This document shows positions 1,701-33,095 of a stretch of 33,095 bases of DNA, piece after piece. Every line of letters begins with the position of its first letter. Positions within the stretch are counted from its first letter, which is position 1. The stretch covers positions 1 through 33,095 of the forward strand of contig CAYPNL010000143.1 of the NCBI GenBank assembly GCA_964412045.1. The letters are read 5' to 3'. The stretch is from an uncultured Desulfobacteraceae bacterium. GTDB taxonomy: Bacteria > Desulfobacterota > DSM-4660 > Desulfatiglandales > B25-G16. Position numbers and translations under genes: made by a program. The notes under the pieces were generated by a model. It did not search any database, was not told the DNA's origin, and was given only the letters and a program-made list of their open reading frames with translations.

Positions 1701-4367
1701 CTATTCCAAGAAACAGAGAGCACGGTGTGCCTGAGGGTCCGCCACAACCTGTGCATAGACCCCATTGGTTGTTTGAGGCATGTGAATGACGTGCACTATA
1801 TCCTCAAATTGTCCTGTTCCCGGCAGTAAATCGGTCAAGCTATTATGGGCGGACTGAAAAAATGCATCGTTGAACCAGGTCTCTGGGTCATCCGGGTATA
1901 CCGGTAAGTAAATTATCTTGGCCTCGACGAGATCCTGAAAGAAATGGGTGCCGTAAGATACTTCAGGTACATGACCGGAGTCTTCGCGGGCGATTTCAAC
2001 AAGAACCGCTGTGTTGTCAATATCTGCATAGCTAACGGTTACCCCTAAGTCGATGTTGCTGCTTCCCCATCTGCCCGGACCCATCATGAGGAATCTTCCT
2101 GCCACAAGGTGCGGATGCCTGTTGAGCTGCCCTACTATCCTGCCGACCGATCTCTTGAGCTCTACAGATGACATCTCCGCATACCGTCGGGGATCTATGT
2201 AGATAATATACTGGATCTTGCTTACTGCCCCGCCGCTGATAACCCTTACGGCCTTGAAAAGGGTGCGCTCTCTGGGGATATTGTGGGGGACCTTTAAGGG
2301 ACCTGATAATCCCGGAAGCCATAAAGGTCTGCATTGGAGTAAATTTACTTTGACGCTCCCGTTCGTGTCCACAAAAGCAGTAAACTCCGTGTCTACCGCA
2401 TGGTTGTATGCCTTGTCCAGGATCTGCAGCATAGCTCCGATGATTGTAGCGAAATCCGTGTCGCTGATAAGCTTGTTAAAGGTGAGTATGAGTTTCTCTC
2501 CGGAATCCGGACGGATCCTGCCGTAAGGATCATGGAGGTATTCGTCTTTCATTATTGACACAAGCAGCTGGAGATTCGGGTATTCATCATTGGATATGAC
2601 CTCTGTAGCAGGCAATGTGACGAATTGATTTTTCTCAAGATCAAGGAGGTCTATTTCATACTGAGAATACTTGGCAATTTCCATCCCTACCTCTGGCCTG
2701 AGCCGGGGATGGCTAATCGCAACCATTCTCGGGTAGTCGCCCCCTACACGGTTTACTGCGCGGGTTCCCAAGCCGAATACAAGGCGTATAAGACCTCTGT
2801 TCGGATCGATACGGTCGGTCCATGCATAGAGGTTTCGTGAAAACGCCACACCTGCAAGGCTCGGGAAAAAATAATGCCTATAAAGAATTCCTGATACCCG
2901 TTGAACCAGGATGGCCATCTGCTCGTCGCTCTCACCCAGCCCTCGCTTGCGCCGATAGGAAAGGGCATCAGGGCTCAAGGTGCTTGCATATACAAGTTTT
3001 ACTGCACGTAGAAAGGCCTCCAATCTTTCATCGGGACTGCCCTGGTTGACGCAAAATTCGCTTCGATATTTTCCGGCAAACGAGTTCCCGAAGCTGTCTT
3101 CCAGCAGGCTGCTCGATCTCACGATAATGGGGGCCTGGCCGAAGTAGTCCAGCATATTACGGAATTGATCCATGATGTCCGAGGAAAACCTGCCGGCAAG
3201 AAAGCTCTGTTCCACGTCTTCAAATTCTTCATGTGACAACTGAGAATCCCTGGATAGCTTTAGGCGAAGCCTGAACAGGTTGTTATCGACGAGAAACGTG
3301 AAAAATACATCAGAGCCGATATAGAATGAGTCATGGTTTTCAAGCAGCTGAGAGAAATCCATCTCTTCTCCCTTTTCCAGAAGAATGCGTCTGGCCAATA
3401 CCATCCCAGCAGCCTTGCCCCCGATCCTCCCGGATCCGATCAGACGATCCCTGATGCAGAAAAGATCTTCCATGGTAAAATAGGAATCTGCAAGCCTCGT
3501 AATCTCTGGATGATTCCCGATCAACATTCGTGAGAATTCTTGTTTCAGCGCGAGAATCTCGGGTGTTATCTTGCGAACGCCTCCGTTTGTTTCTCGATAT
3601 TGCAGAAGCTTGTTGTAGACGCTGTCCCACGGGGCAATGGAGCTTTCATCGGTTCTGAGGGGATGTTTGCGTGCCGTTGCTGATAGGGTAGCGGCCTCAC
3701 CGCTCTGGAAGACCGGCTGCCACTTTTGTTCAGCAACTTCATGGGGAAGGAACATCTGAGGGGAGTAGCGGTCCCAGACCTTCAAAGGGTGTACGTACAT
3801 CTTACCCTTAATCCGGTACACATCGATAAGAACCTGTGTGGTGTCCCGTATCCTGGCAACCGTACTGTTGGCATGATGGCCCCGGGTTAGTGCAAAATAA
3901 GCAACGGTATCCAACTCACGCAGGAACGGGCAGGTAATCTGGAAGAAATTAGCCAGCAGCTCATCGGTTGCCCATTCTTCTACAAGGGCCGACAAGCTAT
4001 CGAGCACGAAAAACTTCATCCCGCCCCACTCCTCAATCACCTGGTGTACCTCGGTGCTGAAGAAGTCGAAACCGTTCCCCGGATTTACCTCCTTGATAAT
4101 AAGGCCGGGACGAGATTCAATGATAGGTCGATGAGGCGCAAACCGCAGATACACGCAGTTTCCGCTTTCACGGATCGCCTGGTCAGCAAAAGGCTGCACA
4201 AAATATACGTAGTCCTCAAGATTGTCTACCTGCCACACCACATTATCCCCAAGACGAAGCCCTTTTAGGATTTGGTCCAGGGCAGGTATTCCGCTTTTTA
4301 TAACCTTTGATTCCATTTCAAACGGCATGTTTTTCGTGAGCGAGTCAGATTCCTGCACTAGACCCAA
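1701..4367 (-). CDS. KaiC/RecA-like N-terminal domain fused to a PEP/pyruvate-binding (PPDK_N-type ATP-grasp) domain
   Basis: 888 aa. The N-terminus ..[24 protein letters not shown].. resembles the start of KaiC/RadA-type ATPase domains but has no GxxxxGK[ST]. The centre ..[15 protein letters not shown].. and downstream region resemble the nucleotide-binding domain of PEP synthase/PPDK. No GGxTSHAA phosphohistidine motif was seen. The listed start overlaps the gdhA stop by 10 nt; an alternative ATG lies at 4328 (MPFEMESK). Confidence 0.75.
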
Positions 4368-25668: not shown

Positions 25669-26205
25669 CTATCCTGATTTTATCTTTCCGAGAAGGCTGG
25701 TCAACTGGGCAACATGGCTTTGCTCTTCCCTTATGATATGGTCGATCCTCTCCCGGCCGTATTTTTGCGGAACCATGTCCTTGAGCCCGAGATAAAAGAG
25801 GACTGATTCCTTCTCAAGGCCAATGGCCGTATTGAGCACCTCCTCCATGGTCTCATTGCCGGTGAGTGAATCCGCTACAGACGGACTGCCCTCACCGCCC
25901 TGTGTGTCCGCCATCGCTGATAGGTACAGCGATACCTCGTCTTGCGGATCGAATACCGTTCCGCCTTTTTCCGTATCAGTAAGGGTGTTCCGCATCTCTG
26001 TAAATGTTGCTTTATGACCATCCTCCATCGCAGCCAATTTCTCGAAAAATCTACGGTTTTCCGTATCCGATTGCAATCCCGCGGCCTTGCGATAAAAAGC
26101 ACCGCCGTTTTCCTCGATTCGAATAGCCATCTCAAGCACCTCGTCCAGATTAAAACCTAAGGCCATCGCCCCTCCTTTCTGAGAGAGAGTAAGGTTGTCA
26201 TTCAC
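25669..26205 (-). CDS. ferritin-like/rubrerythrin-type diiron domain protein
   Basis: Two ExxH-type motifs (..AAMEDGH.., ..IIREEQSH..) within repeated helical halves (AIRIEENGGAFY / AIGLEKESVLFY). The likely true start is the ATG at 26166 (MALGFNL), preceded by AAAGGAGGGG. Confidence 0.75.
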   Translation of the reverse strand: MNDNLTLSQKGGAMALGFNLDEVLEMAIRIEENGGAFYRKAAGLQSDTENRRFFEKLAAMEDGHKATFTEMRNTLTDTEKGGTVFDPQDEVSLYLSAMADTQGGEGSPSVADSLTGNETMEEVLNTAIGLEKESVLFYLGLKDMVPQKYGRERIDHIIREEQSHVAQLTSLLGKIKSG

Positions 26206-26388
26206 GTATCAAAATATCTGAGTATTAAATCTATATCACAAGGGTTCACTGAAAAAAAGGCATTTATTGATATATGGTCGCTAGGAAACCAGCTTGGACT
26301 GCTTAGACGGGAACAGGCGGCAGGGGATCTGCTGAAAGGGGCGCTCAGGGCAAGCCACCGATCAGTGTGTCGTGAAAAAAGGGCAGTA

Positions 26389-26952
26389 TCAGACAGGCGC
26401 ATGGGTCACGCCACGCATCCTTTTGACCGAGTCGAGGCTGAGCTTGAATCGTTGTTCGTTGACCTCGGTGCCCCACATTGATCCCCTTCGTTGTTCCATG
26501 AGGGTGAAGCCGTTTTTCTCGTAGAGATGTTTCGCTGGATCGAGTCCCTCAAATGTCCAGAGGTATATTGCCTTGTAGCCTCTGTTACGACAAAAGCGCT
26601 TTGCCGCCCTAATGAGCCGGCTTCCTGTGCCTCTTCCGTGCAGGGAAGCGGATACGATGAACCAACGAAGATGAGCGCCCCGGTCCCCGGCATGAATCCC
26701 GTCAATCGCAATGGAGCCTATGATATTTCCCCCGAGAAGAGCTGTCCAGAAGCCATCCCGCTGATCATCATAGCGACCCATAAATTCGGCGAGCTCGCCG
26801 GCTACCTTTGCCTCAAAGAAGGCGCCGAAACCCCAGTGCTCATGGTAGTAAGTGCCGTGAAGTTCGGCAACCCGACCGATTGAACCCGGGATATAGCCTC
26901 TCTGAATCCGGATTTTTCCTATGGGTTCACGCCTCATATCCATTATTTGCAC
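26389..26952 (-). CDS. GNAT-family N-acetyltransferase
   Basis: The acetyl-CoA motif ..LHGRGTGSRLIRAAKRFCRNRGYKAIYLWTFEGLDPAKHLYEKNGF.. is present. The listed start is GTG; in-frame ATGs lie at 26943 and 26937. Confidence 0.85.
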   Translation of the reverse strand: MQIMDMRREPIGKIRIQRGYIPGSIGRVAELHGTYYHEHWGFGAFFEAKVAGELAEFMGRYDDQRDGFWTALLGGNIIGSIAIDGIHAGDRGAHLRWFIVSASLHGRGTGSRLIRAAKRFCRNRGYKAIYLWTFEGLDPAKHLYEKNGFTLMEQRRGSMWGTEVNEQRFKLSLDSVKRMRGVTHAPV

Positions 26953-27053
26953 ACATCAATCCCTTGGGCACCGGTGATACTGTTTAGCATGAATGCGAGG
27001 GTTTTGGCGATCAAATCCAGTTCCACGCCCAAGGCCTGCGCCGCGAGTTCCAC
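26943..27053 (-). other. 36-codon ORF/gene remnant wedged between the MBL and GNAT genes (YbaK/ProX-editing-domain-like fragment?)
   Basis: A GTG lies 3 nt after the MBL stop, in the same frame as MBL. It translates to (M)ELAAQALGVELDLIAKTLAFMLNSITGAQGIDVCK. Its TAA overlaps the GNAT ATG at 26943 (TAATG). It is below the ORF-track size cut-off. Confidence 0.3.
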
Positions 27054-27056
27054 CGT

Positions 27057-28001
27057 TTAGGGCTTGACGGTTGTAAAGAGCATCCCGTCTTTCCGCATGA
27101 CAATATCGCGGTGCAGGAAATCGCGCATGATGTGCTCATAGGTTTTCTGATACTCGCTCTTAAAGAAAAGATCAATAGTCTCCTTGAACCAGTGTGTTCC
27201 CATCAGATGGTCGAAGAAGGCCTTTTCATCCACCTGCCGGTGCATGAGAATCGTGTAGATTATGATCTTCTTGAGCAGGGAGTCGCCGGATTTTTCTCTG
27301 TGATTCAGGAACTCATGTGCCTTTTTCTTACTTTTGGAGATGGCCTCTTTGAAATTCGTAAATGGTCTCCCGTGCCCGGGATACACGATTTTCACATCAA
27401 GGGATTCGAGTTGTTCAAAGGAAGAAAGAAGATCAAAGAGACAGGTGCTTCCTTCCACCCGCATGGTAATCGTGGGTAGGTCATCTTCCCAGAGCGCGTC
27501 TCCGGAGATAAGGGCTTTTTCTTTTCTATTGTACAGGACGATACCGTCAGAGGCATGGCCCGGCGTGTGGAGAACCAGAAATTCGTGAGGGCCGATGGGG
27601 ATCACATCCCCGTCATCGAGGGCGATGGTGCAGGTGAAGAAGTCGGCCTTCTGGCTGTAATATCTCCACCAGGTGGCCCAGTCATCACGGGTGTCTATAA
27701 AATATTTCCCAAGCTTGTGCAGGGCGATATCGCAGCCGGATCTGTCTTGAATAATTTTATTTCCTCCGATGTGGTCGCAGTGGGTGTGGGTATTGATAAT
27801 GAGCCGGGTTTGTGAAAGATTGACGCCTCTATCCTCTATAAAGCGCTCTGTTATGTCAAAGTCAGAGAGGTAACCGGTGTCGACGAGGACCGGTTCTTCT
27901 GATCGATACACGAAGTGATTCGAATTCAGGTATCCCCTTTCGATAAAAAACAGGTCCTTCATGATTTCAAGAGCAGACATAGCGCTCCCCACAATTTTCA
28001 T
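27057..28001 (-). CDS. MBL-fold metallo-hydrolase
   Basis: Has the HTHCDHIGG (HxHxDH) motif plus downstream His/Asp ligands (HTPGHASDG, ISGDAL, PGHG). Confidence 0.85.
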   Translation of the reverse strand: MKIVGSAMSALEIMKDLFFIERGYLNSNHFVYRSEEPVLVDTGYLSDFDITERFIEDRGVNLSQTRLIINTHTHCDHIGGNKIIQDRSGCDIALHKLGKYFIDTRDDWATWWRYYSQKADFFTCTIALDDGDVIPIGPHEFLVLHTPGHASDGIVLYNRKEKALISGDALWEDDLPTITMRVEGSTCLFDLLSSFEQLESLDVKIVYPGHGRPFTNFKEAISKSKKKAHEFLNHREKSGDSLLKKIIIYTILMHRQVDEKAFFDHLMGTHWFKETIDLFFKSEYQKTYEHIMRDFLHRDIVMRKDGMLFTTVKP

Positions 28002-28079
28002 GTGTCCATAGGGTGGTCGCTGTTCTATGCCGTTGAGAAGCCGGTACTGTGCGGAAAGCTGTTCTCGAAGCTTCTCACG

Positions 28080-28511
28080 TTAATCTTTGCTGAATTTTTC
28101 TGAGAAGCTGTTGAGGACTCTTTTGAAAATTTCAAGTTCATCATCGGCAAAGCCTGATTTGATATTCCTATTCACTTCATTGATAACCACTTGGGCCCTT
28201 TTGCTTTCTTCCACGCCCTGGGGCGTTACATAGATACGAAACATCCTGCGGTCGCCTGAACTCAAATCTCGCCGCACAAAGCCGTTTTTTTCAAGCCGGT
28301 CAACAAGCCCTGTAATCGTTGAGTTATCGATGAATAAAGCCTGGCTCAATTCGGTCATGCTTTGGCCGTCTTTCCGCCTGAGCAAGAAAAGAATGCCTGC
28401 CTGTGTCACTGTGACATGAATTCCTCTCACGGTGAGGGCCTTTTTCAAATAGGCCCTCAGCCGATGCTGTGCCAGAAACACCTGATAGATAAGCCGATCG
28501 CTGGTTGGCAT
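28080..28511 (-). CDS. MarR-family transcriptional regulator
   Basis: 143 aa. The winged-HTH ..VTVTQAGILFLLRRKDGQSMTELSQALFIDNSTITGLVDRLEKNGFVRRDLSSGDRRMFRIYVTPQG.. is a classical MarR pattern. Confidence 0.9.
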   Translation of the reverse strand: MPTSDRLIYQVFLAQHRLRAYLKKALTVRGIHVTVTQAGILFLLRRKDGQSMTELSQALFIDNSTITGLVDRLEKNGFVRRDLSSGDRRMFRIYVTPQGVEESKRAQVVINEVNRNIKSGFADDELEIFKRVLNSFSEKFSKD

Positions 28512-28546
28512 TCAAAATACCTCCATTGCATCGCTCGGTTGTGCTA

Positions 28547-29029
28547 TTAGGATCTCAGATGCGGCCTGGGTCTGTCAGATTTTCCAGGCAGCGCTATCAA
28601 GGTCATCAGGGCTGCTGCGCTCATTGTCTCATATCCATCTTTAACCACAAAGACTTCAGGTCTACATATGGTCAAGGTACGCCCTGCCTTTATCACCTGT
28701 GCCCGGGCGATGAGAAGCTCCCCATCACCGGGAGCGAGGATGTTTAATTTATATTCAACAGTTAAGATAGATGCGCGAGGGGGCATTAACGTGAAGGCAG
28801 CATAGCCACCTGAATTATCGGCAAGCGTACCGATAACCCCTGCGTGAAAAAATCCATGCTGCTGAGAGAGTTCCTTCTTGTAGGGAAGATGGATTTCACA
28901 ATATCCGGGATGGACTTCGGCAAGCCTTGCCCCTATAAACTCCATAAATTTCTGCCTCTGAAAGCTTGATCTCACCTTTTGAACGTAATTCTTGTCCAAT
29001 GGCTCAAAGACCATAGTGTGCATCTCCAT
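28547..29029 (-). CDS. PaaI-family hotdog-fold thioesterase
   Basis: ..HGFFHAGVIGTLADNSGGYAA.. and ..TVEYKLNILAPGDGELLIARAQVIKAGRTLTICR.. are typical of PaaI/YbgC-like thioesterases. A start at the ATG at 29014 (MVFEPL) has GGAG 9 nt upstream. Confidence 0.85.
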   Translation of the reverse strand: MEMHTMVFEPLDKNYVQKVRSSFQRQKFMEFIGARLAEVHPGYCEIHLPYKKELSQQHGFFHAGVIGTLADNSGGYAAFTLMPPRASILTVEYKLNILAPGDGELLIARAQVIKAGRTLTICRPEVFVVKDGYETMSAAALMTLIALPGKSDRPRPHLRS

Positions 29030-29077
29030 TAATAATGGTATTCCTTTTCATCGTTTCCCCTAAGAGGGGCTTTCGCG

Positions 29078-29122
29078 ATATTGGGTTTATCAATATTTGG
29101 CATACCAAATAATATCTGTCAA
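29078..29122 (-). promoter_or_regulatory. candidate promoter/operator region of the thioesterase-MarR operon
   Basis: The minus strand has a perfect -35 TTGACA (29117-29122) with only a weak -10 (CAAATA/AAATAT). Two palindromes overlap it, ATTTGG-CATA-CCAAAT (29095-29110) and ATATTG-N7-CAATAT (29078-29096), and are plausible MarR boxes. Confidence 0.35.
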
Positions 29123-29131
29123 TCTTTTTGC

Positions 29132-29154
29132 GGTGAATCCGAACGGGGTTGGGC
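29132..29154 (-). mobile_element. terminal attC-like half-site (R''-L'' arm only)
   Basis: The minus strand reads GCCCAAC CCC GTTCGGATTCACC. The R'' box and flank (CAGCCCAAC) are identical to those of the methyltransferase cassettes. No matching L'/R' arm follows. Confidence 0.35.
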
Positions 29155-29371
29155 TGAAGTCACTCAGCGGACTGATGAGCTTGATATATACAAAAGGAGC
29201 ACAGAGGGATTGCCAGTCCGGGTTGATTCGTTTGTGAACCCCAGCATGTCGACTCCCCCATAATCGGGAGTGGTGCGGTTAGGGGTAGTTAGAATCCCCC
29301 TTGCCCGATCTTGCCGCCCTCCTATGGTGATGAATACACCGCCCTTGATGTTTTCGCCGTAGTGCATTTGT

Positions 29372-29665
29372 TTATCGGCTTTGGTTTCGGCAACTATACT
29401 TTTTTCGTTCATCGGTACATGACCACCACGGAAGAGAATCCCCGCCTTCCATAAAACGGATAACCGACATAAATACATCAATAAGGCAGGGGTCATTCTT
29501 CTTTCCTGATATGGCGGAAAGCTCCTCGTATAAGACAAATGGATCTTTTCCGATCAGCTTCTTTGGATGATCAATGCCGATCAGATGTAAATGAACCGCC
29601 ACCGCTTTTCCAATATTGGGAAGCTCTTCAAGCCGTGAAACCGTTTCTCTGTTTGGCGTTTTCAT
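29372..29665 (-). CDS. helix-hairpin-helix domain protein (Cdd1/TfoX-C-like)
   Basis: 97 aa. ..VSRLEELPNIGKAVAVHLHLIGIDHPKKLIGKDPFVLYEEL.. has the LPNIG HhH pattern. AAGGA lies 7 nt before the ATG. The gene starts 17 nt after a consensus GTTAGGC box. Confidence 0.65.
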   Translation of the reverse strand: MKTPNRETVSRLEELPNIGKAVAVHLHLIGIDHPKKLIGKDPFVLYEELSAISGKKNDPCLIDVFMSVIRFMEGGDSLPWWSCTDERKKYSCRNQSR

Positions 29666-29681
29666 CTATGTCCTTTGTTGC

Positions 29682-29770
29682 GCCTAACGTGCTCTGATGA
29701 TCCTTGCTTTATCACCCATGTCGGAACGTGAGACGACCTTGATTTGTCGACATAAGCAACCAAGTTCCGT
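29682..29770 (-). mobile_element. candidate long attC site upstream of the HhH cassette
   Basis: Read on the minus strand: ACGGAAC (R''-like), TTGG, the imperfect hairpin TTGCTTATGTCG / CGACAT[GGGTGAT]AAAGCAA, a 15-nt spacer, then GTTAGGC (the classical R' consensus). The arms are asymmetric. Confidence 0.3.
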
Positions 29771-29836
29771 ATTATATTAAAACCGATTCCAAATTTTCCG
29801 AACTTCGCAAGAAATAGCGCAAAGCGAAGCGAGGAG

Positions 29837-30310
29837 CTATTTCTCCTCAAGTGCATCCAATTCTTCGGCTTCCTTGAGCTTTTCAACATCAATTCTATCT
29901 TGCGGCCTCCCGCTTGCTTCCTTTGATCGAATAAGGTCAGACCGTGAAATGAATGGAATGTTAACATCCGCTAGTTGAACGACTTCACGGTTGTTCCAAG
30001 CCTCATCGAACTCTATTCCTGGAATCGACATCATAATATCAACTCTTAATGGGGGTCTGCCCATTTGATAGAAATATCCTTTATGTGCGAAGTCGTCTGA
30101 AGTAAGATTTTCCAGAGGTGCGCCAAATTCTTTCAAGGCTGAATACACGCCTTTTGTATTAGCTTGATCAGTCGCTATAAAAACATCAACGTCTTTTGTG
30201 AACCGTGGCTCACTATATTTCATAACGGCATATCCGCCCACTATGAGGTAGCGAACTTTATGCTTTTCGAAAATTTTCAACAGTCCTCTGAAGTCTGGGC
30301 TCGTCAGCAT
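29837..30310 (-). CDS. minimal nucleotidyltransferase-fold protein (module 1)
   Basis: 157 aa. ..VRYLIVGGYAVMKYSEPRFTKDVDVFI.. is the hGGxA..(x)..TxDxD pol-beta-type NTase motif. Homologous to the protein at 31563-32108. GAGGA lies 4 nt before the ATG, inside the upstream ORF. Confidence 0.75.
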   Translation of the reverse strand: MLTSPDFRGLLKIFEKHKVRYLIVGGYAVMKYSEPRFTKDVDVFIATDQANTKGVYSALKEFGAPLENLTSDDFAHKGYFYQMGRPPLRVDIMMSIPGIEFDEAWNNREVVQLADVNIPFISRSDLIRSKEASGRPQDRIDVEKLKEAEELDALEEK

Positions 30311-30455
30311 TTTGTCCTCGAATCAATAAATAGTCATTTAGCATTTCCGTCACTGCCTCGAAAATAGCAAGATCTCCTTGCGATTGCCAGAAACGAATAT
30401 CGAAAAAACGCTTATCATCTGTTATACGTTGATACTTTTCTTCAATTTTATTCAT
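30258..30455 (-). CDS. small partner protein of NTase module 1
   Basis: 65 aa with AGAGGA 7 nt before the ATG. Its 3' end overlaps the NTase gene by 53 nt in another frame. No family recognised. Confidence 0.55.
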   Translation of the reverse strand: MNKIEEKYQRITDDKRFFDIRFWQSQGDLAIFEAVTEMLNDYLLIRGQNADEPRLQRTVENFRKA

Positions 30456-30475
30456 TTTGTATCCTCTTGCACCGG

Positions 30476-30544
30476 GTAGGGTAGGGCGTTACCGCCCCTT
30501 TCCCCCCTAAGAACCCTGCGTGATAGTTTCCCATCACAAGGCTC
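30476..30544 (-). mobile_element. group II intron domain V + domain VI (3' stub, no ORF, no domains I-III)
   Basis: The minus strand reads GAGCCTTGTGATGGGAAACTATCACGCAGGGTTC (30544-30511). This is a 34-nt DV with the AGC triad, a 2-nt AC bulge and a GAAA loop. Then come TTA and GGGGGGAAAGGGGCG-GTAA-CGCCCTACCCTAC, a DVI with a GNRA loop and a bulged A 7 nt from the ..TAC 3' end. Confidence 0.75.
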
Positions 30545-30627
30545 AAGCATCCCAAAGATAAGCCCTTGTGAGGCAATCCGCTGATGAGAATTATATTCCT
30601 CATCAACTTTACGATACTGACTGACAG

Positions 30628-30687
30628 CTACAATGCCTTTCGGCAAGAGGTGCACCAGCTTTTTGCCATCGCCTTATGCCGTTGGGC
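30628..30687 (-). mobile_element. atypical attC candidate following methyltransferase cassette copy 1
   Basis: Read on the minus strand: GCCCAAC (perfect RYYYAAC), GGCAT, ..TGGCAA-N16-TTGCCG.., AAGGC, ATTGTAG. It is 60 bp with a 7-5-..-5-7 layout, but the inner pairing and the R' box are poor. Confidence 0.35.
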
Positions 30688-30752
30688 TGTTTTTGTCGGT
30701 ACTGCTTATTTCTCTCCCCGTATCATCGCCATAGTTCCCAAAATGAATGGAA
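30679..30752. repeat. 74-bp perfect direct repeat, copy 1 (3' end of methyltransferase gene + R'' box)
   Basis: Base-for-base identical to 33022-33095 (checked by eye), at an offset of 2343 bp. Confidence 0.9.
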
Positions 30753-31479
30753 CTTTTAATAGGTGCGGAATAAAGGGCGAATCTTTTGTTTGGATGAACT
30801 CCACCTTGGCTGTTCCCCAGGTCTTGATGGTAGCAACTAACGCGTCCGCGTCGCCGTATATCTTCTTAATGAGGAACTCATCCTGGAAAGCGAACGTACC
30901 GCCTTTCTTTAGGACGCGCAGCGCTTCACGAATAACCTCGCGCTTGTCATTGACGCCGCCCACTTCGTGGAAGACGAAATTGCTCACCACTGCATCGAAG
31001 TGCCCGTCATCGAATGGCAATGACGCGGCACTGCCTTTTTGGAAGGTCACACGATCACTTACTCCCTCGATCGTCGCGTTACGGTCACAGGCACTCATTG
31101 AGTACTCCCATCTCTTTCCCCAATAGTCAATCCCGAGGACTTCTGCGTTTCCGTGTTTCTGAGCGAGCTTGATGGCAAGGGCGCCGTTTCCACACCCTAT
31201 ATCCAAAAGTTTCCCTTCTCCGTTCCAATCCAAGAAATCTATCACCAGGTTCCAAATAGACTCTTGCACATTGCCCGATTGAGGAGAAAACTTGAAGCGA
31301 ATATACGATAGATAACCAGCTACCAACAGAAAGAACGCAGCGGGAATCAGCAGGAAAAGTGAGACAATGCTCGACGCCAGGAAAGCCAATCCTATTGCAA
31401 GAGAGACATAGATGATTCGTTTAGGAACCCAATTGCCATAATCGGGATACTCGTTGTGTTGCTCATTCATGCGCTTCAC
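30706..31479 (-). CDS. class I SAM-dependent methyltransferase with two N-terminal TM helices
   Basis: Motif I LLDIGCGNGALAIKLA, the acidic loop VLGIDY and post-I/II motifs (FDAVVSNFVFHEV, LKKGGTFAF). The hydrophobic N-terminus is IIYVSLAIGLAFLASSIVSLFLLIPAAFFLLVAGYL. The listed start is GTG; an ATG lies at 31470. Confidence 0.85.
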   Translation of the reverse strand: MKRMNEQHNEYPDYGNWVPKRIIYVSLAIGLAFLASSIVSLFLLIPAAFFLLVAGYLSYIRFKFSPQSGNVQESIWNLVIDFLDWNGEGKLLDIGCGNGALAIKLAQKHGNAEVLGIDYWGKRWEYSMSACDRNATIEGVSDRVTFQKGSAASLPFDDGHFDAVVSNFVFHEVGGVNDKREVIREALRVLKKGGTFAFQDEFLIKKIYGDADALVATIKTWGTAKVEFIQTKDSPFIPHLLKVPFILGTMAMIRGEK

Positions 31480-31499
31480 GCTTTCATGTTTCCGTGAAA

Positions 31500-31558
31500 G
31501 GCCAACGCTGCGGATCAGACGCGGCTATTTGCCGTCGCGTGCACCCGTCTTGTTCGGT
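31500..31558 (-). mobile_element. attC site (59 bp) between NTase module 2 and the methyltransferase cassette
   Basis: Read on the minus strand: ACCGAAC, AAGAC, a 35-nt imperfect hairpin (about 10 bp with single-base bulges), GCAGC, GTTGGCC. Confidence 0.5.
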
Positions 31559-31562
31559 GGTA

Positions 31563-32108
31563 TTACTTGTTGCCGCCATGTTCCTCGTCCTCCTCGCTGC
31601 GATACTCCTCCCCCAGTTGCCGCAAAGTTTCTTTAAGCACAGGTAGTCGCTGCTTGTCTTTGAAATCTGTAGAAGCTTTCTTGAGTTCGATTAACGTCTT
31701 TAGATCTAGCACTCGAAGGGTGTGACCTCTGAAATCAATTTCCACGGTATGGTTCAGGAGGTCCTCGTATGATCTTCCCCCTTCAATAACAGCTAAGACA
31801 TCCAGAGGGCCTAGTCGCGTCTTAAGAAGCAGGTGGCCCTTCCCGGATAGCTCGCGCTCTTTCGGTTCAATCAACTTGTCGTCCAAGCGACGATGAACAG
31901 CATCAACCGATTTAAGATAGGCGAGTAGTTTTCCTATGTTTTCGGGAGATTGGCTGTGAACGATATCCACATCCATCGTTGTGACCGGGGCTCCCTGGAT
32001 TACGGCTGCAAGGCCTCCTACCAGAATAAAATCGACGCCTGCCTCGAGCAGCCCCTCCAGAACATCACCTAGGTTTGCGCTTGTTGTTCTTCTGCCGCCT
32101 GTAGGCAT
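31563..32108 (-). CDS. minimal nucleotidyltransferase-fold protein (module 2)
   Basis: 181 aa. ..VDFILVGGLAAVIQGAPVTTMDVDIVH.. is an NTase motif. The C-terminal ..LKTLIELKKASTDFKDKQRLPVLKE.. parallels ..RSDLIRSKEASGRPQDRIDVEKLKE.. of module 1. GGAG lies 7 nt before the ATG, inside the upstream ORF. Confidence 0.7.
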   Translation of the reverse strand: MPTGGRRTTSANLGDVLEGLLEAGVDFILVGGLAAVIQGAPVTTMDVDIVHSQSPENIGKLLAYLKSVDAVHRRLDDKLIEPKERELSGKGHLLLKTRLGPLDVLAVIEGGRSYEDLLNHTVEIDFRGHTLRVLDLKTLIELKKASTDFKDKQRLPVLKETLRQLGEEYRSEEDEEHGGNK

Positions 32109-32241
32109 CCCTCAACTCCAGAATTGTACGAAATGCGTTGTCATTAGCCCGTAAACGCTCCTCGGGCGACATCCTTAAGAACATGGCGACTAATCCCTTA
32201 TCCACACCGGATTGATCATCGCTTTTTGTTTCTTTAGACAT
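32065..32241 (-). CDS. small partner protein of NTase module 2
   Basis: The preferred start is the ATG at 32241 (MSKETKSDD), with GAGAGG 8 nt upstream; the ORF track uses a TTG at 32265. It has a basic C-terminal tail. Its 3' end overlaps the NTase gene by 44 nt out of frame. Confidence 0.5.
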   Translation of the reverse strand: MSKETKSDDQSGVDKGLVAMFLRMSPEERLRANDNAFRTILELRDAYRRQKNNKRKPR

Positions 32242-32280
32242 GCTATGACCTCTCTTGAACGACAAGTATGAACCCTTTCA

Positions 32281-32350
32281 GCCGAACGAAAAGTTCACCG
32301 GGACCAAGGGCCGCCAGGCCCTTGGGATCAGGTGGAGCGACAGGTTGACC
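32281..32350 (-). mobile_element. attC site (70 bp) downstream of mazF
   Basis: Read on the minus strand: GGTCAAC, CTGTC, GCTCCACC, a 31-nt variable region with the perfect 9-bp stem CCAAGGGCC/GGCCCTTGG, GGTGAAC, TTTTC, GTTCGGC. L'' has one extra base relative to L'. Confidence 0.65.
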
Positions 32351-32359
32351 GTTCATGTC

Positions 32360-32671
32360 TCAGATATCAAGGGCAAAACCGATTGCACGCCCAACATCAA
32401 CCATCTTTGCTAGAGGTAAGGATGTGATCAATGATCCGATTTTTTCCTTTGAAACAGTCTGCAAGTGGTCACAATTGACAGCACAATCCTGGGGCATGCC
32501 GTCAGCTTTCGAGAGAAACACCTCAGACGGGATTTTTCGGACGGTAGTTGTGATAGGAGCGATAGTGACCTCACCAAGATATTCCAGCACAGAATCTCGT
32601 GTCAGAACAAGAACTGGTCGTTTCTTGTCAGGCCGTAAGAACTTGTAATAACGTATTTCACCGCGCTTCAT
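32360..32671 (-). CDS. mazF: type II toxin, MazF/PemK-family endoribonuclease
   Basis: 103 aa. MKRGEIRYYKF..KKRPVLVLTRD..VTIAPITTT..P.EV.L.....GMPQDCAVNCDHLQTVSKEKI is a typical PemK/MazF pattern. Its ATG overlaps the antitoxin stop (ATGA). Confidence 0.9.
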   Translation of the reverse strand: MKRGEIRYYKFLRPDKKRPVLVLTRDSVLEYLGEVTIAPITTTVRKIPSEVFLSKADGMPQDCAVNCDHLQTVSKEKIGSLITSLPLAKMVDVGRAIGFALDI

Positions 32672-32901
32672 TCATCCCCCCAAGCATGCTCGGTTTCCCA
32701 AACCGAAAACTCATCGGCAGCAACCGGGTGTTGTGCATAACCCAGGCGATGCTTGTGTTCTAGCTCTTCAAGCTTATAACGGGCGAGTGCGTCACGGAGT
32801 GCCTTTCTTGCAAAAGCAGAACGGCTTGTACGGAGTTCCTTTGAAACGCGGTCGACCGCTTTCACAAGGTCATCATCAAGGGTCATCTGAATAGTTTTCA
32901 T
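32668..32901 (-). CDS. ribbon-helix-helix (CopG/MazE-type) antitoxin
   Basis: 77 aa. The N-terminal RHH is MKTIQMTLDDDLVKAVDRVSKELRTSRSAFARKALRDAL. GAGGTG lies 6 nt before the ATG. Confidence 0.85.
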   Translation of the reverse strand: MKTIQMTLDDDLVKAVDRVSKELRTSRSAFARKALRDALARYKLEELEHKHRLGYAQHPVAADEFSVWETEHAWGDE

Positions 32902-32933
32902 ATCACACCTCTATAATGTGTATTGTTATAGCT

Positions 32934-32962
32934 ATAATAATCCACATTATGTGCCATGTCAA
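32934..32962 (-). promoter_or_regulatory. cassette-internal sigma70-type promoter with flanking operator repeats for copG-mazF
   Basis: The minus strand has TTGACA (32962-32957), exactly 17 nt, then TATTAT (32939-32934). The inverted repeats ATAATGTG / CACATTAT flank the -10. Confidence 0.55.
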
Positions 32963-32974
32963 ATCGATTGATTC

Positions 32975-33030
32975 GGCCAATGTCGAGTTCACCGGGAGCG
33001 TTAGCGATCTGGTGGAACGCCCCGTTGGGC
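32975..33030 (-). mobile_element. attC site (56 bp) downstream of methyltransferase cassette copy 2
   Basis: Read on the minus strand: GCCCAAC, GGGGC, GTTCCACC, 17 nt, GGTGAAC, TCGAC, ATTGGCC. L'' has one extra base, which is an extrahelical G on the plus (bottom) strand (GGTG[G]AAC vs GTTCACC). Confidence 0.65.
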
Positions 33031-33095
33031 TGTTTTTGTCGGTACTGCTTATTTCTCTCCCCGTATCATCGCCATAGTTCCCAAAATGAATGGAA
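33022..33095. repeat. 74-bp perfect direct repeat, copy 2 (cut by the window edge)
   Basis: Identical to 30679-30752. Confidence 0.9.
33049..33095 (-). CDS. 3' end of a second copy of the membrane SAM-methyltransferase gene (partial, continues off-window)
   Basis: The last 15 codons plus stop are identical at the DNA level to those of 30706-31479. The rest of the gene lies beyond the window. Confidence 0.6.
   Translation of the reverse strand, partial: PFILGTMAMIRGEK

Follow-up and report, generated by a model that had tools for sequence, protein, structure and literature searches.

A probable 5′-truncated, ORF-less relative of the UHB.I2 group II intron at a disrupted attC site in a putative Desulfobacteraceae cassette array

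What is the 3′ end of a group II intron doing, on its own, between two integron cassettes? The window analyzed here (a 33,095-nt stretch of a contig from an uncultured Desulfobacteraceae bacterium) carries such a stub on its minus strand, and a first-pass annotation, made from the letters alone, had left it as a decayed insertion, a marker of how the cassette was assembled, or a trans-acting fragment of domains V and VI (DV-DVI). The first of these options turned out to be the right one, with the stub being a truncated homolog of the domain IV-DV-DVI part of related introns. With a probability of roughly 85%, we read it as the inert 3′ end of an ORF-less IIB1/CL1 intron, from a lineage, little studied so far, that homes to the R′ core of attC sites; the 5′ part of the window copy would have been lost either at integration or afterwards.

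Structurally, the stub is a genuine group II DV-DVI. The covariance-model search proposed by the first-pass annotation gave a score above threshold rather than below it (Rfam RF00029, the group II DV-DVI model; 30476-30546 on the minus strand, 62.8 bits, E=2.9e-10, gathering score 40), and this was the sole Rfam family above threshold across the 33-kb window. A degenerate DV pattern matched once in the window and in none of 100 shuffles, and the stretch 30470-30700 folded far better than its shuffles (z = −5.2). As originally described, a 34-nt DV with an AGC triad, a 2-nt bulge, and a GNRA loop is followed by a DVI with a GUAA loop and a bulged A. Pair counts on relatives agree: 98% of cells were paired across the 14 pairs of DV, with compensatory changes at 3 pairs (seven relatives), and 97.8% across the DV-DVI alignment of seven sequences, with compensatory changes at 5 pairs.

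Relatives were sought with the DV pattern. In species-representative genomes the sole match was a Phormidium intron whose DVI is unrelated, and viral contigs returned nothing, while metagenomes yielded three true relatives, L014, L019, and L017 (two copies in L017), that share with the window both DV-DVI and 130 nt upstream of it (134 nt in the window), at 92% identity over 193 nt for L019 and 89% over 176 nt for L014. No IEP is encoded in any of the three. Contigs L015, L016, and L018 from the same scan were rejected as relatives, having only DV in common. The DVs of L013, L015, L016, and L018 are identical or near-identical to that of the window, with entirely different DVIs and flanks, and DV identity alone is therefore a poor guide to relatedness. 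The second copy in L017 is near-complete and ORF-less, starting with UUGCGAC and continuing through ~570 nt of DI-DIII (RF02012 D1-D4, 77.7 bits; family-profile match over intron positions 1-561) to an ATG and a few IEP codons, after which ~160 nt lead to DV. L014, L019, and the window represent three different 5′ truncations with one 3′ end: the cut falls at about position 339 of the DI-DIII profile in L014, at DIII/DIV in L019, and at about the IEP start in the window, and in each a start codon on the same strand follows the 3′ end after 15-30 nt. Judged by these alignments, the window copy appears to derive from the ORF-less sub-lineage of L014, L017, and L019. Two further observations concern these contigs. 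In L017, the two ORF-less copies (80-184 and 700-1493) flank one lipoprotein cassette, each just upstream of a cassette start, a pattern suggestive of more than one homing event, at consecutive attC sites within one array. In L014, a 30-bp perfect inverted repeat around ~110 nt (930-1100, MITE-like) abuts the truncated intron 5′ end, near a 68-aa ORF (510-716) whose first ~43 residues may resemble an integron integrase N-terminus.

Evolutionarily, the stub belongs with UHB.I2, a full IIB1/CL1 intron that Sonbol & Siam 2021 (Mob DNA 12:8; PMC7923331) described in a Tanatar-5 soda-lake array. UHB.I2 directly follows an attC and shares the orientation of the cassettes, with boundaries 5′-UUGCG..GU-3′ and a 3′ exon whose first 2 bases were noted as conserved, and the IEPs of its lineage are without an endonuclease domain (PMC7923331). 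Compared with the UHB.I2 sequence (taken from the supplement of PMC7923331 and from L025, contig LFIK01005957), the window is 84% identical over DV-DVI; for the family, identity to UHB.I2 amounts to 82-86% over DV-DVI and 68-78% over DI-DIII. The window also has the domain IV homology, the ..CCCGGU 3′ terminus, the cassette orientation, a 3′ end just upstream of a cassette gene, a 3′ exon starting with GC, and a soda-lake origin, and the ORF-less relatives have the UUGCGAC 5′ end and the EBS1 loop in common with UHB.I2. UHB.I2 differs in being full length with a 500-aa En-minus IEP, whereas the window copy has neither DI-DIII nor an IEP. Thus, by homology, and with its class taken from the published IEP tree for UHB.I2, the window copy is best assigned as a derivative of the IIB1/CL1 (UHB.I2) lineage. 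The remark in the first-pass annotation that the ribozyme core lies in the same orientation as the cassette genes is true of the stub, but this is normal for the lineage and no anomaly.

IEP homologs of UHB.I2 led to further full-length copies (L027, L028, and L030-L033). The full-length UHB.I2-like intron of L027 (~2200-3551) has a DVI that is broken right after the inner hairpin, with a DDE_5 transposase gene on the other strand; in L028, the same intron has no such break. L026 (5001-7499) encodes, near conjugation-like genes, an 832-aa product with two RT/maturase domain sets, which may be a twintron or a fused call, and its intron start, GTGCGAC, is canonical and differs from that of the UUGCG lineage.

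The 3′ end and branch point of the stub had to be moved (Table 1). Originally placed at 30476 and 30482, respectively, they fall at 30471 (...CCUACCCGGU↓G, where the arrow here and below marks a junction) and at a conserved bulged A at 30477 in the alignment with six relatives. An Enterobacter plasmid relative (L011), which interrupts umuD, supports this position of the 3′ end, since restoring the UmuD frame puts the 3′ splice site at the homologous ..CCUACCCGAU↓G. The GGU terminus is common to L014, L019, L028, L031, L033, and UHB.I2. Against the family DVI consensus, GGG-GGG-AAA-[GGGGCN-loop-NGCCCC]-UGA-CCU-A-CCC-GGU, the window has one C deleted and an altered internal loop, which reads UAC in the window, UGC in most population contigs, and UGA in the consensus. 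Position 30482, within this loop, is G in 8 of 11 population contigs and A in the window, L008, and L009; given these loop readings, the A is a derived SNP, with G ancestral, and not the branch point. We first took this A/G SNP for a branch-point mutation, an idea dropped once the family alignment placed 30482 in the internal loop.

Table 1 Features of the intron stub and the surrounding cassettes (positions in the window)
Feature	Position	Strand	Details and basis
5′-truncated ORF-less IIB1/CL1 (UHB.I2-like) intron remnant, ~208 nt	30471..30678	-	Domain IV remnant, DV, and DVI; assigned by homology
Domain IV remnant	30545..30678	-	IEP-start leftover (frame ..KAGAPLAER..) and 3′ domain IV hairpins; IEP ORF deleted
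Domain IV hairpin TGATGAG-N10-CTCATCA	30582..30605	-	Conserved in L014 and L019
Domain V	30544-30511	-	GAGCCUUGUGAUGGGAAACUAUCACGCAGGGUUC; AGC triad, AC bulge, GAAA loop; RF00029
Domain VI	30474..30507	-	GGG/CCC, branch A 30477, GGG/CCU, internal loop, GGGCG-GUAA-CGCCC; alignment and pair counts
Intron 3′ terminus GGU	30471..30473	-	Non-canonical ..GU end typical of the lineage
GC, first two 3′-exon bases	30469..30470	-	Probably the end of a split attC R′ core (GTTNN↓GC)
ACGG microhomology, left junction	30679..30682	-	Common to attC flank and intron domain IV
R″ box GCCCAAC	30687-30681	-	Disrupted attC of methyltransferase copy 2; L″, loop, L′, and R′ missing; comparison with intact copy
SAM-dependent methyltransferase, cassette copy 2	30706..31479	-	
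R′ GTTGGCC	31506-31500	-	Precedes methyltransferase copy 2
attC-like site of methyltransferase copy 1, intact	32975..33030	-	R″ GCCCAAC, L″ GTTCCAC, L′ GTGAAC, R′ ATTGGCC; by eye
65-aa ORF, first gene of downstream cassette	30258..30455	-	RBS AAGAGGA 30468-30462
R′ core GTTAGGC	29682..29688	-	Closes the fused methyltransferase + 65-aa/DUF6036 unit

Upstream of DV, the ORF-less arrangement of domain IV recurs in L019, L014, and L017 copy 2. The TGATGAG...CTCATCA hairpin, suspected from the start to be a domain IV remnant, is one, with a spacer of N10 and not N9; in L017 copy 1, a hairpin of different sequence replaces it. GTGCA (30655-30651), in contrast, is refuted as an intron 5′ end, since it forms part of AGCTGGTGCACC, a conserved stretch of domain IV that in the longer relatives extends further upstream. 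The plasmid introns L011 and L012 at first led us to see, in the peptide HKAMAKSWCTSCRKAL (ending in a stop), the final part of an HNH endonuclease domain. That reading was ruled out by the frame common to the relatives, ..AGAPLAER.., which matches the N-termini of related IEPs (..TGASRN../..KGSALRN..), and by the lack of an endonuclease domain in the IEPs of the lineage (PMC7923331). The frame of the ORFs that gene callers put across DV-DVI differs from one relative to the next, and these ORFs are best dismissed as artifacts; a sigma-70 promoter scan of 30300-30800 found 0 sites.

No ribozyme core accompanies the stub. The Rfam D1-D4 models had no match in the window, and a permissive Rfam scan of 26000-33095 added nothing relevant and again no D1-D4 match. 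Because these models also miss the full-length relatives L025 and L031, a family-specific DI-DIII nhmmer profile was built; it matched nothing in the window, nor in the extended contigs L001, L002, L003, L006, and L020 (~15 kb), and neither did blastn with the 5′ parts of L017, L011, and UHB.I2 in the window. The window contains no reverse transcriptase and no integrase, and the part of the host genome that was searched yielded no IEP-encoding parent intron. The earlier observation that there is no room for domains I-III or a reverse transcriptase is thus borne out. With no DI-DIII found, the element is a fragment and not a complete intron, and a remnant without these domains cannot be expected to catalyze splicing, so that it is predicted to be a relic rather than a working ribozyme.

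Where such introns insert can be read from relatives with intact ends, the 5′ end and R′ core of the window copy having been deleted. All intact 5′ junctions (7/7) read (A/C)CGTTNN↓TTGCGAC, and the six bases that end the 5′ exon are matched by a complementary DI loop (..NNAACG..), with compensatory changes among the EBS1/IBS1 pairs (AGAACG/CGUUCU, CGAACG/CGUUCG, and CUAACG/CGUUGG). The 5′ flanks of the relatives fold, as bottom strands, into attC-like hairpins, of which L031 is a textbook 57-nt example. The 3′ exon begins with GC in 6 of the 9 family copies, and the 3′ flank in the window, GC-AAGAGGA-N6-ATG, fits the same pattern. Taken together, the junctions, the EBS1 pairing, and the GC 3′ exons indicate that the intron splits the R′ core as GTTNN↓GC. 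Through EBS1-IBS1 targeting, it would therefore land 4 nt downstream of the G↓TT crossover and become the 5′ end of the downstream cassette.

The stub lies in a small attC cluster without a visible integrase in the window. On the minus strand, the order is a BNR protein, methyltransferase-attC, RHH/PemK-attC, a 58-aa + 181-aa nucleotidyltransferase-like pair-attC, methyltransferase-R″-stub-65-aa + DUF6036-attC, and then Cdd1, a thioesterase, and MarR onward; the remainder of the window holds housekeeping genes. Array features include R and L boxes (by eye) with an extrahelical base (a G in L′ GTGAAC of the intact site), toxin-antitoxin cassettes, and duplicated or reordered cassettes. Inspection by eye gave the attC sites in the window, whose predicted hairpins outdo shuffles only weakly (z −0.8 to −2.0), and a crude attC scanner performed poorly on the window. 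An exact-sequence look-up of the 257-aa methyltransferase gave no match. Downstream of the stub, the 65-aa ORF overlaps a DUF6036 nucleotidyltransferase ORF at 29837-30310. Its ATG at 30455 is just downstream of the stub, as was noted at first, but the gap is 15 nt from the corrected 3′ end. The layout of a 58- to 66-aa ORF overlapping a DUF6036/DUF2204-type nucleotidyltransferase ORF is seen in cassettes 29837-30455 and 31563-32265, which are possibly paralogous toxin-antitoxin-like pairs.

On its left side, the stub meets what remains of an attC. The first-pass annotation had placed it at a cassette junction, ~135 nt from the R″ box, with identity between the methyltransferase cassette copies breaking 2 nt after R″. 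Sequence comparison confirmed each point: R″ ends 134 nt before DV, 30679-30752 and 33022-33095 are 100% identical, their identity ends 2 nt past R″, and the attC beyond R″ is missing in copy 2. The duplicated segment takes in the 3′ end of the methyltransferase and GCCCAACGG. The sequence of the attC flank is CCCAACGG↓GGCG, domain IV of L019 reads ..AAGACGGCGGCCATTAGGC.., and the window reads CCCAACGGCATAAGGC, with ACGG as the overlap (the domain IV context is ..GACGGC.. in L019 and ..CACGGC.. in L014). This 4-nt microhomology is suggestive of how the junction formed and is not proof. With its 5′ end joined to R″ + 2 nt through ACGG, the stub lacks ~600 nt of the intron, and ~45 nt of the attC have gone. 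The lasting effect is on cassette structure, as the methyltransferase cassette, left without its attC, is fused with the 65-aa/DUF6036 cassette.

Ten Mono Lake contigs carry the stub junction as well, among them the MAG ‘delta proteobacterium ML8_D’. None of the sequences compared had, at this site, a full-length intron or an undisrupted attC, and for this reason we infer the order of events. The same population shows a second SNP in the methyltransferase tail (AAAAGTTCC vs AAAAATTCC), and a 2343-bp unit (methyltransferase - RHH/PemK - 58-aa/181-aa pair; 30679-33095) appears tandemly repeated. In L020, methyltransferase copy 2 leads back into the RHH gene, whereas in L006 and L008 BNR-methyltransferase is joined directly to the stub; these arrangements reflect either strain variation in copy number and order or assembly collapse.

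From these comparisons, we posit the following history. EBS1 (..NNAACG..) of the incoming intron would have paired with IBS1 (CGTTNN) in an attC R′ core, on the cassette-gene strand, and the intron would have inserted in front of the 65-aa/DUF6036 cassette. The 5′ ~600 nt (DI-DIII), along with ~45 nt of the upstream attC, would then have been lost, either at integration, through abortive target-primed reverse transcription with microhomology joining, or later, through replication slippage or deletion, with the join made through the 4-nt ACGG.

Several other readings could account for a DV-DVI standing alone. One is a split intron spliced in trans, of which the stub would be the 3′ half; a variant of this is a DV-DVI RNA that acts in trans by complementing a DI-DIII transcript from elsewhere. 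DV and DVI are indeed almost intact and strongly structured (z = −5.2), and organellar trans-spliced introns are split in domain IV, where the break in the stub also falls. We nevertheless consider this very unlikely, and the trans-acting role offered by the first-pass annotation is not supported, as Rfam, blastn, and the family nhmmer profile detected no DI-DIII partner in the window or, for the profile, in the ~15 kb of extended contigs listed above. Moreover, the downstream ORF, 15 nt past the 3′ end, has its own RBS and ATG and so is not an exon that needs joining, the differing 5′ cuts of the relatives fit random truncation and not a defined split, and DVI carries a 1-nt deletion and loop changes against the consensus. 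A different origin for the left junction alone would be recombination by an integron integrase between an inverse core (the bottom-strand G↓TTGGGC of R″) and a secondary site in the intron. The break does lie 2-3 nt from the predicted top-strand RYYYAA↓C cleavage position, but the relatives have no GTT/AAC triplet at the corresponding intron position (GACGGC or CACGGC), R″ is the wrong box, not being normally cleaved by the integrase, and the window contains no integrase. An integrase event is thus the weaker alternative to a microhomology event, and an unlikely one.

The class C framing of the first-pass annotation, under which the stub would be a remnant of an IIC-attC intron, was abandoned for the IIB1/CL1 type of the relatives. 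Full relatives have ~570 nt of DI-DIII and an EBS1 loop, a size larger than is typical of IIC ribozymes. What recommends class C is the location of the stub at an attC, the best-known integron introns being IIC-attC (PMC3001079, PMC7923331). IIC-attC introns, however, are oriented opposite to cassette transcription (PMC7923331), whereas the stub shares its strand with the cassette ORFs, its homologs in DV-DVI and domain IV are IIB1 introns of the UHB.I2 type, and its 3′ end is GGU. Orientation and homology already contradict class C, which we regard as highly improbable. Even harder to credit is a circular permutation, in which DV-DVI would stand upstream of DI-DIII and back-splicing would yield RNA circles: bacterial permuted group II introns exist (mentioned in PMC5737381), and here DV-DVI does stand alone upstream of genes, but neither the window nor the 10 kb of L001 has a DI-DIII downstream of the stub, and the longer relatives keep the normal order DIII-DIV-DV-DVI.

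A truncated, ORF-less UHB.I2-type intron, our preferred reading, accounts both for the odd intergenic structure and for two cassettes that are locked together. The kind of element is not new, having been described already in soda-lake integrons; what is added is the fixed R′-core site and the ORF-less and truncated derivatives. The comparison extends a single published example to IIB1 introns with UUGCG...GGU ends at one fixed R′-core position with EBS1-IBS1 covariation, in a lineage that has ORF-less derivatives and leaves 5′-truncated tails in soda-lake and sediment cassette arrays. More tentatively, and on balance doubtfully, the UHB.I2-type lineage, ORF-less copies included, could form a dedicated ‘sense-strand’ family that homes to attC R′ cores and, by landing 4 nt past the integrase crossover, travels as cassette 5′ ends, in which truncated copies erase the preceding attC (in the window, possibly in L019) and so provide a recurring route to fused, multi-gene cassettes. 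If true, this would be a second intron-integron partnership, mechanistically distinct, beside IIC-attC. The comparison is of use for integron annotation and for understanding how introns and integrons shape each other.

Among other known systems, the stub resembles in form H.ha.F1 and H.ha.F2, 5′-truncated IIB introns of a Halorhodospira halochloris CALIN for which the authors proposed incomplete reverse transcription at hairpins (PMC7923331). Like the stub, they keep DV-DVI and lie in an attC cluster without an integrase near toxin-antitoxin cassettes; unlike it, they belong to bacterial class E, retain part of the IEP ORF, and have a DV-DVI sequence unlike that of the window. IIC-attC introns (e.g., S.ma.I2; PMC3001079) are likewise group II introns that home to attC, but they are of class C, lie on the strand opposite the cassettes, and reportedly take the folded bottom strand of the attC for their upstream stem-loop (PMC7923331). 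Cassettes fused by attC loss (PMC4670013) offer the parallel of two cassettes joined with the first attC partly lost, the difference being that in the window the lost attC segment is replaced by an intron remnant.
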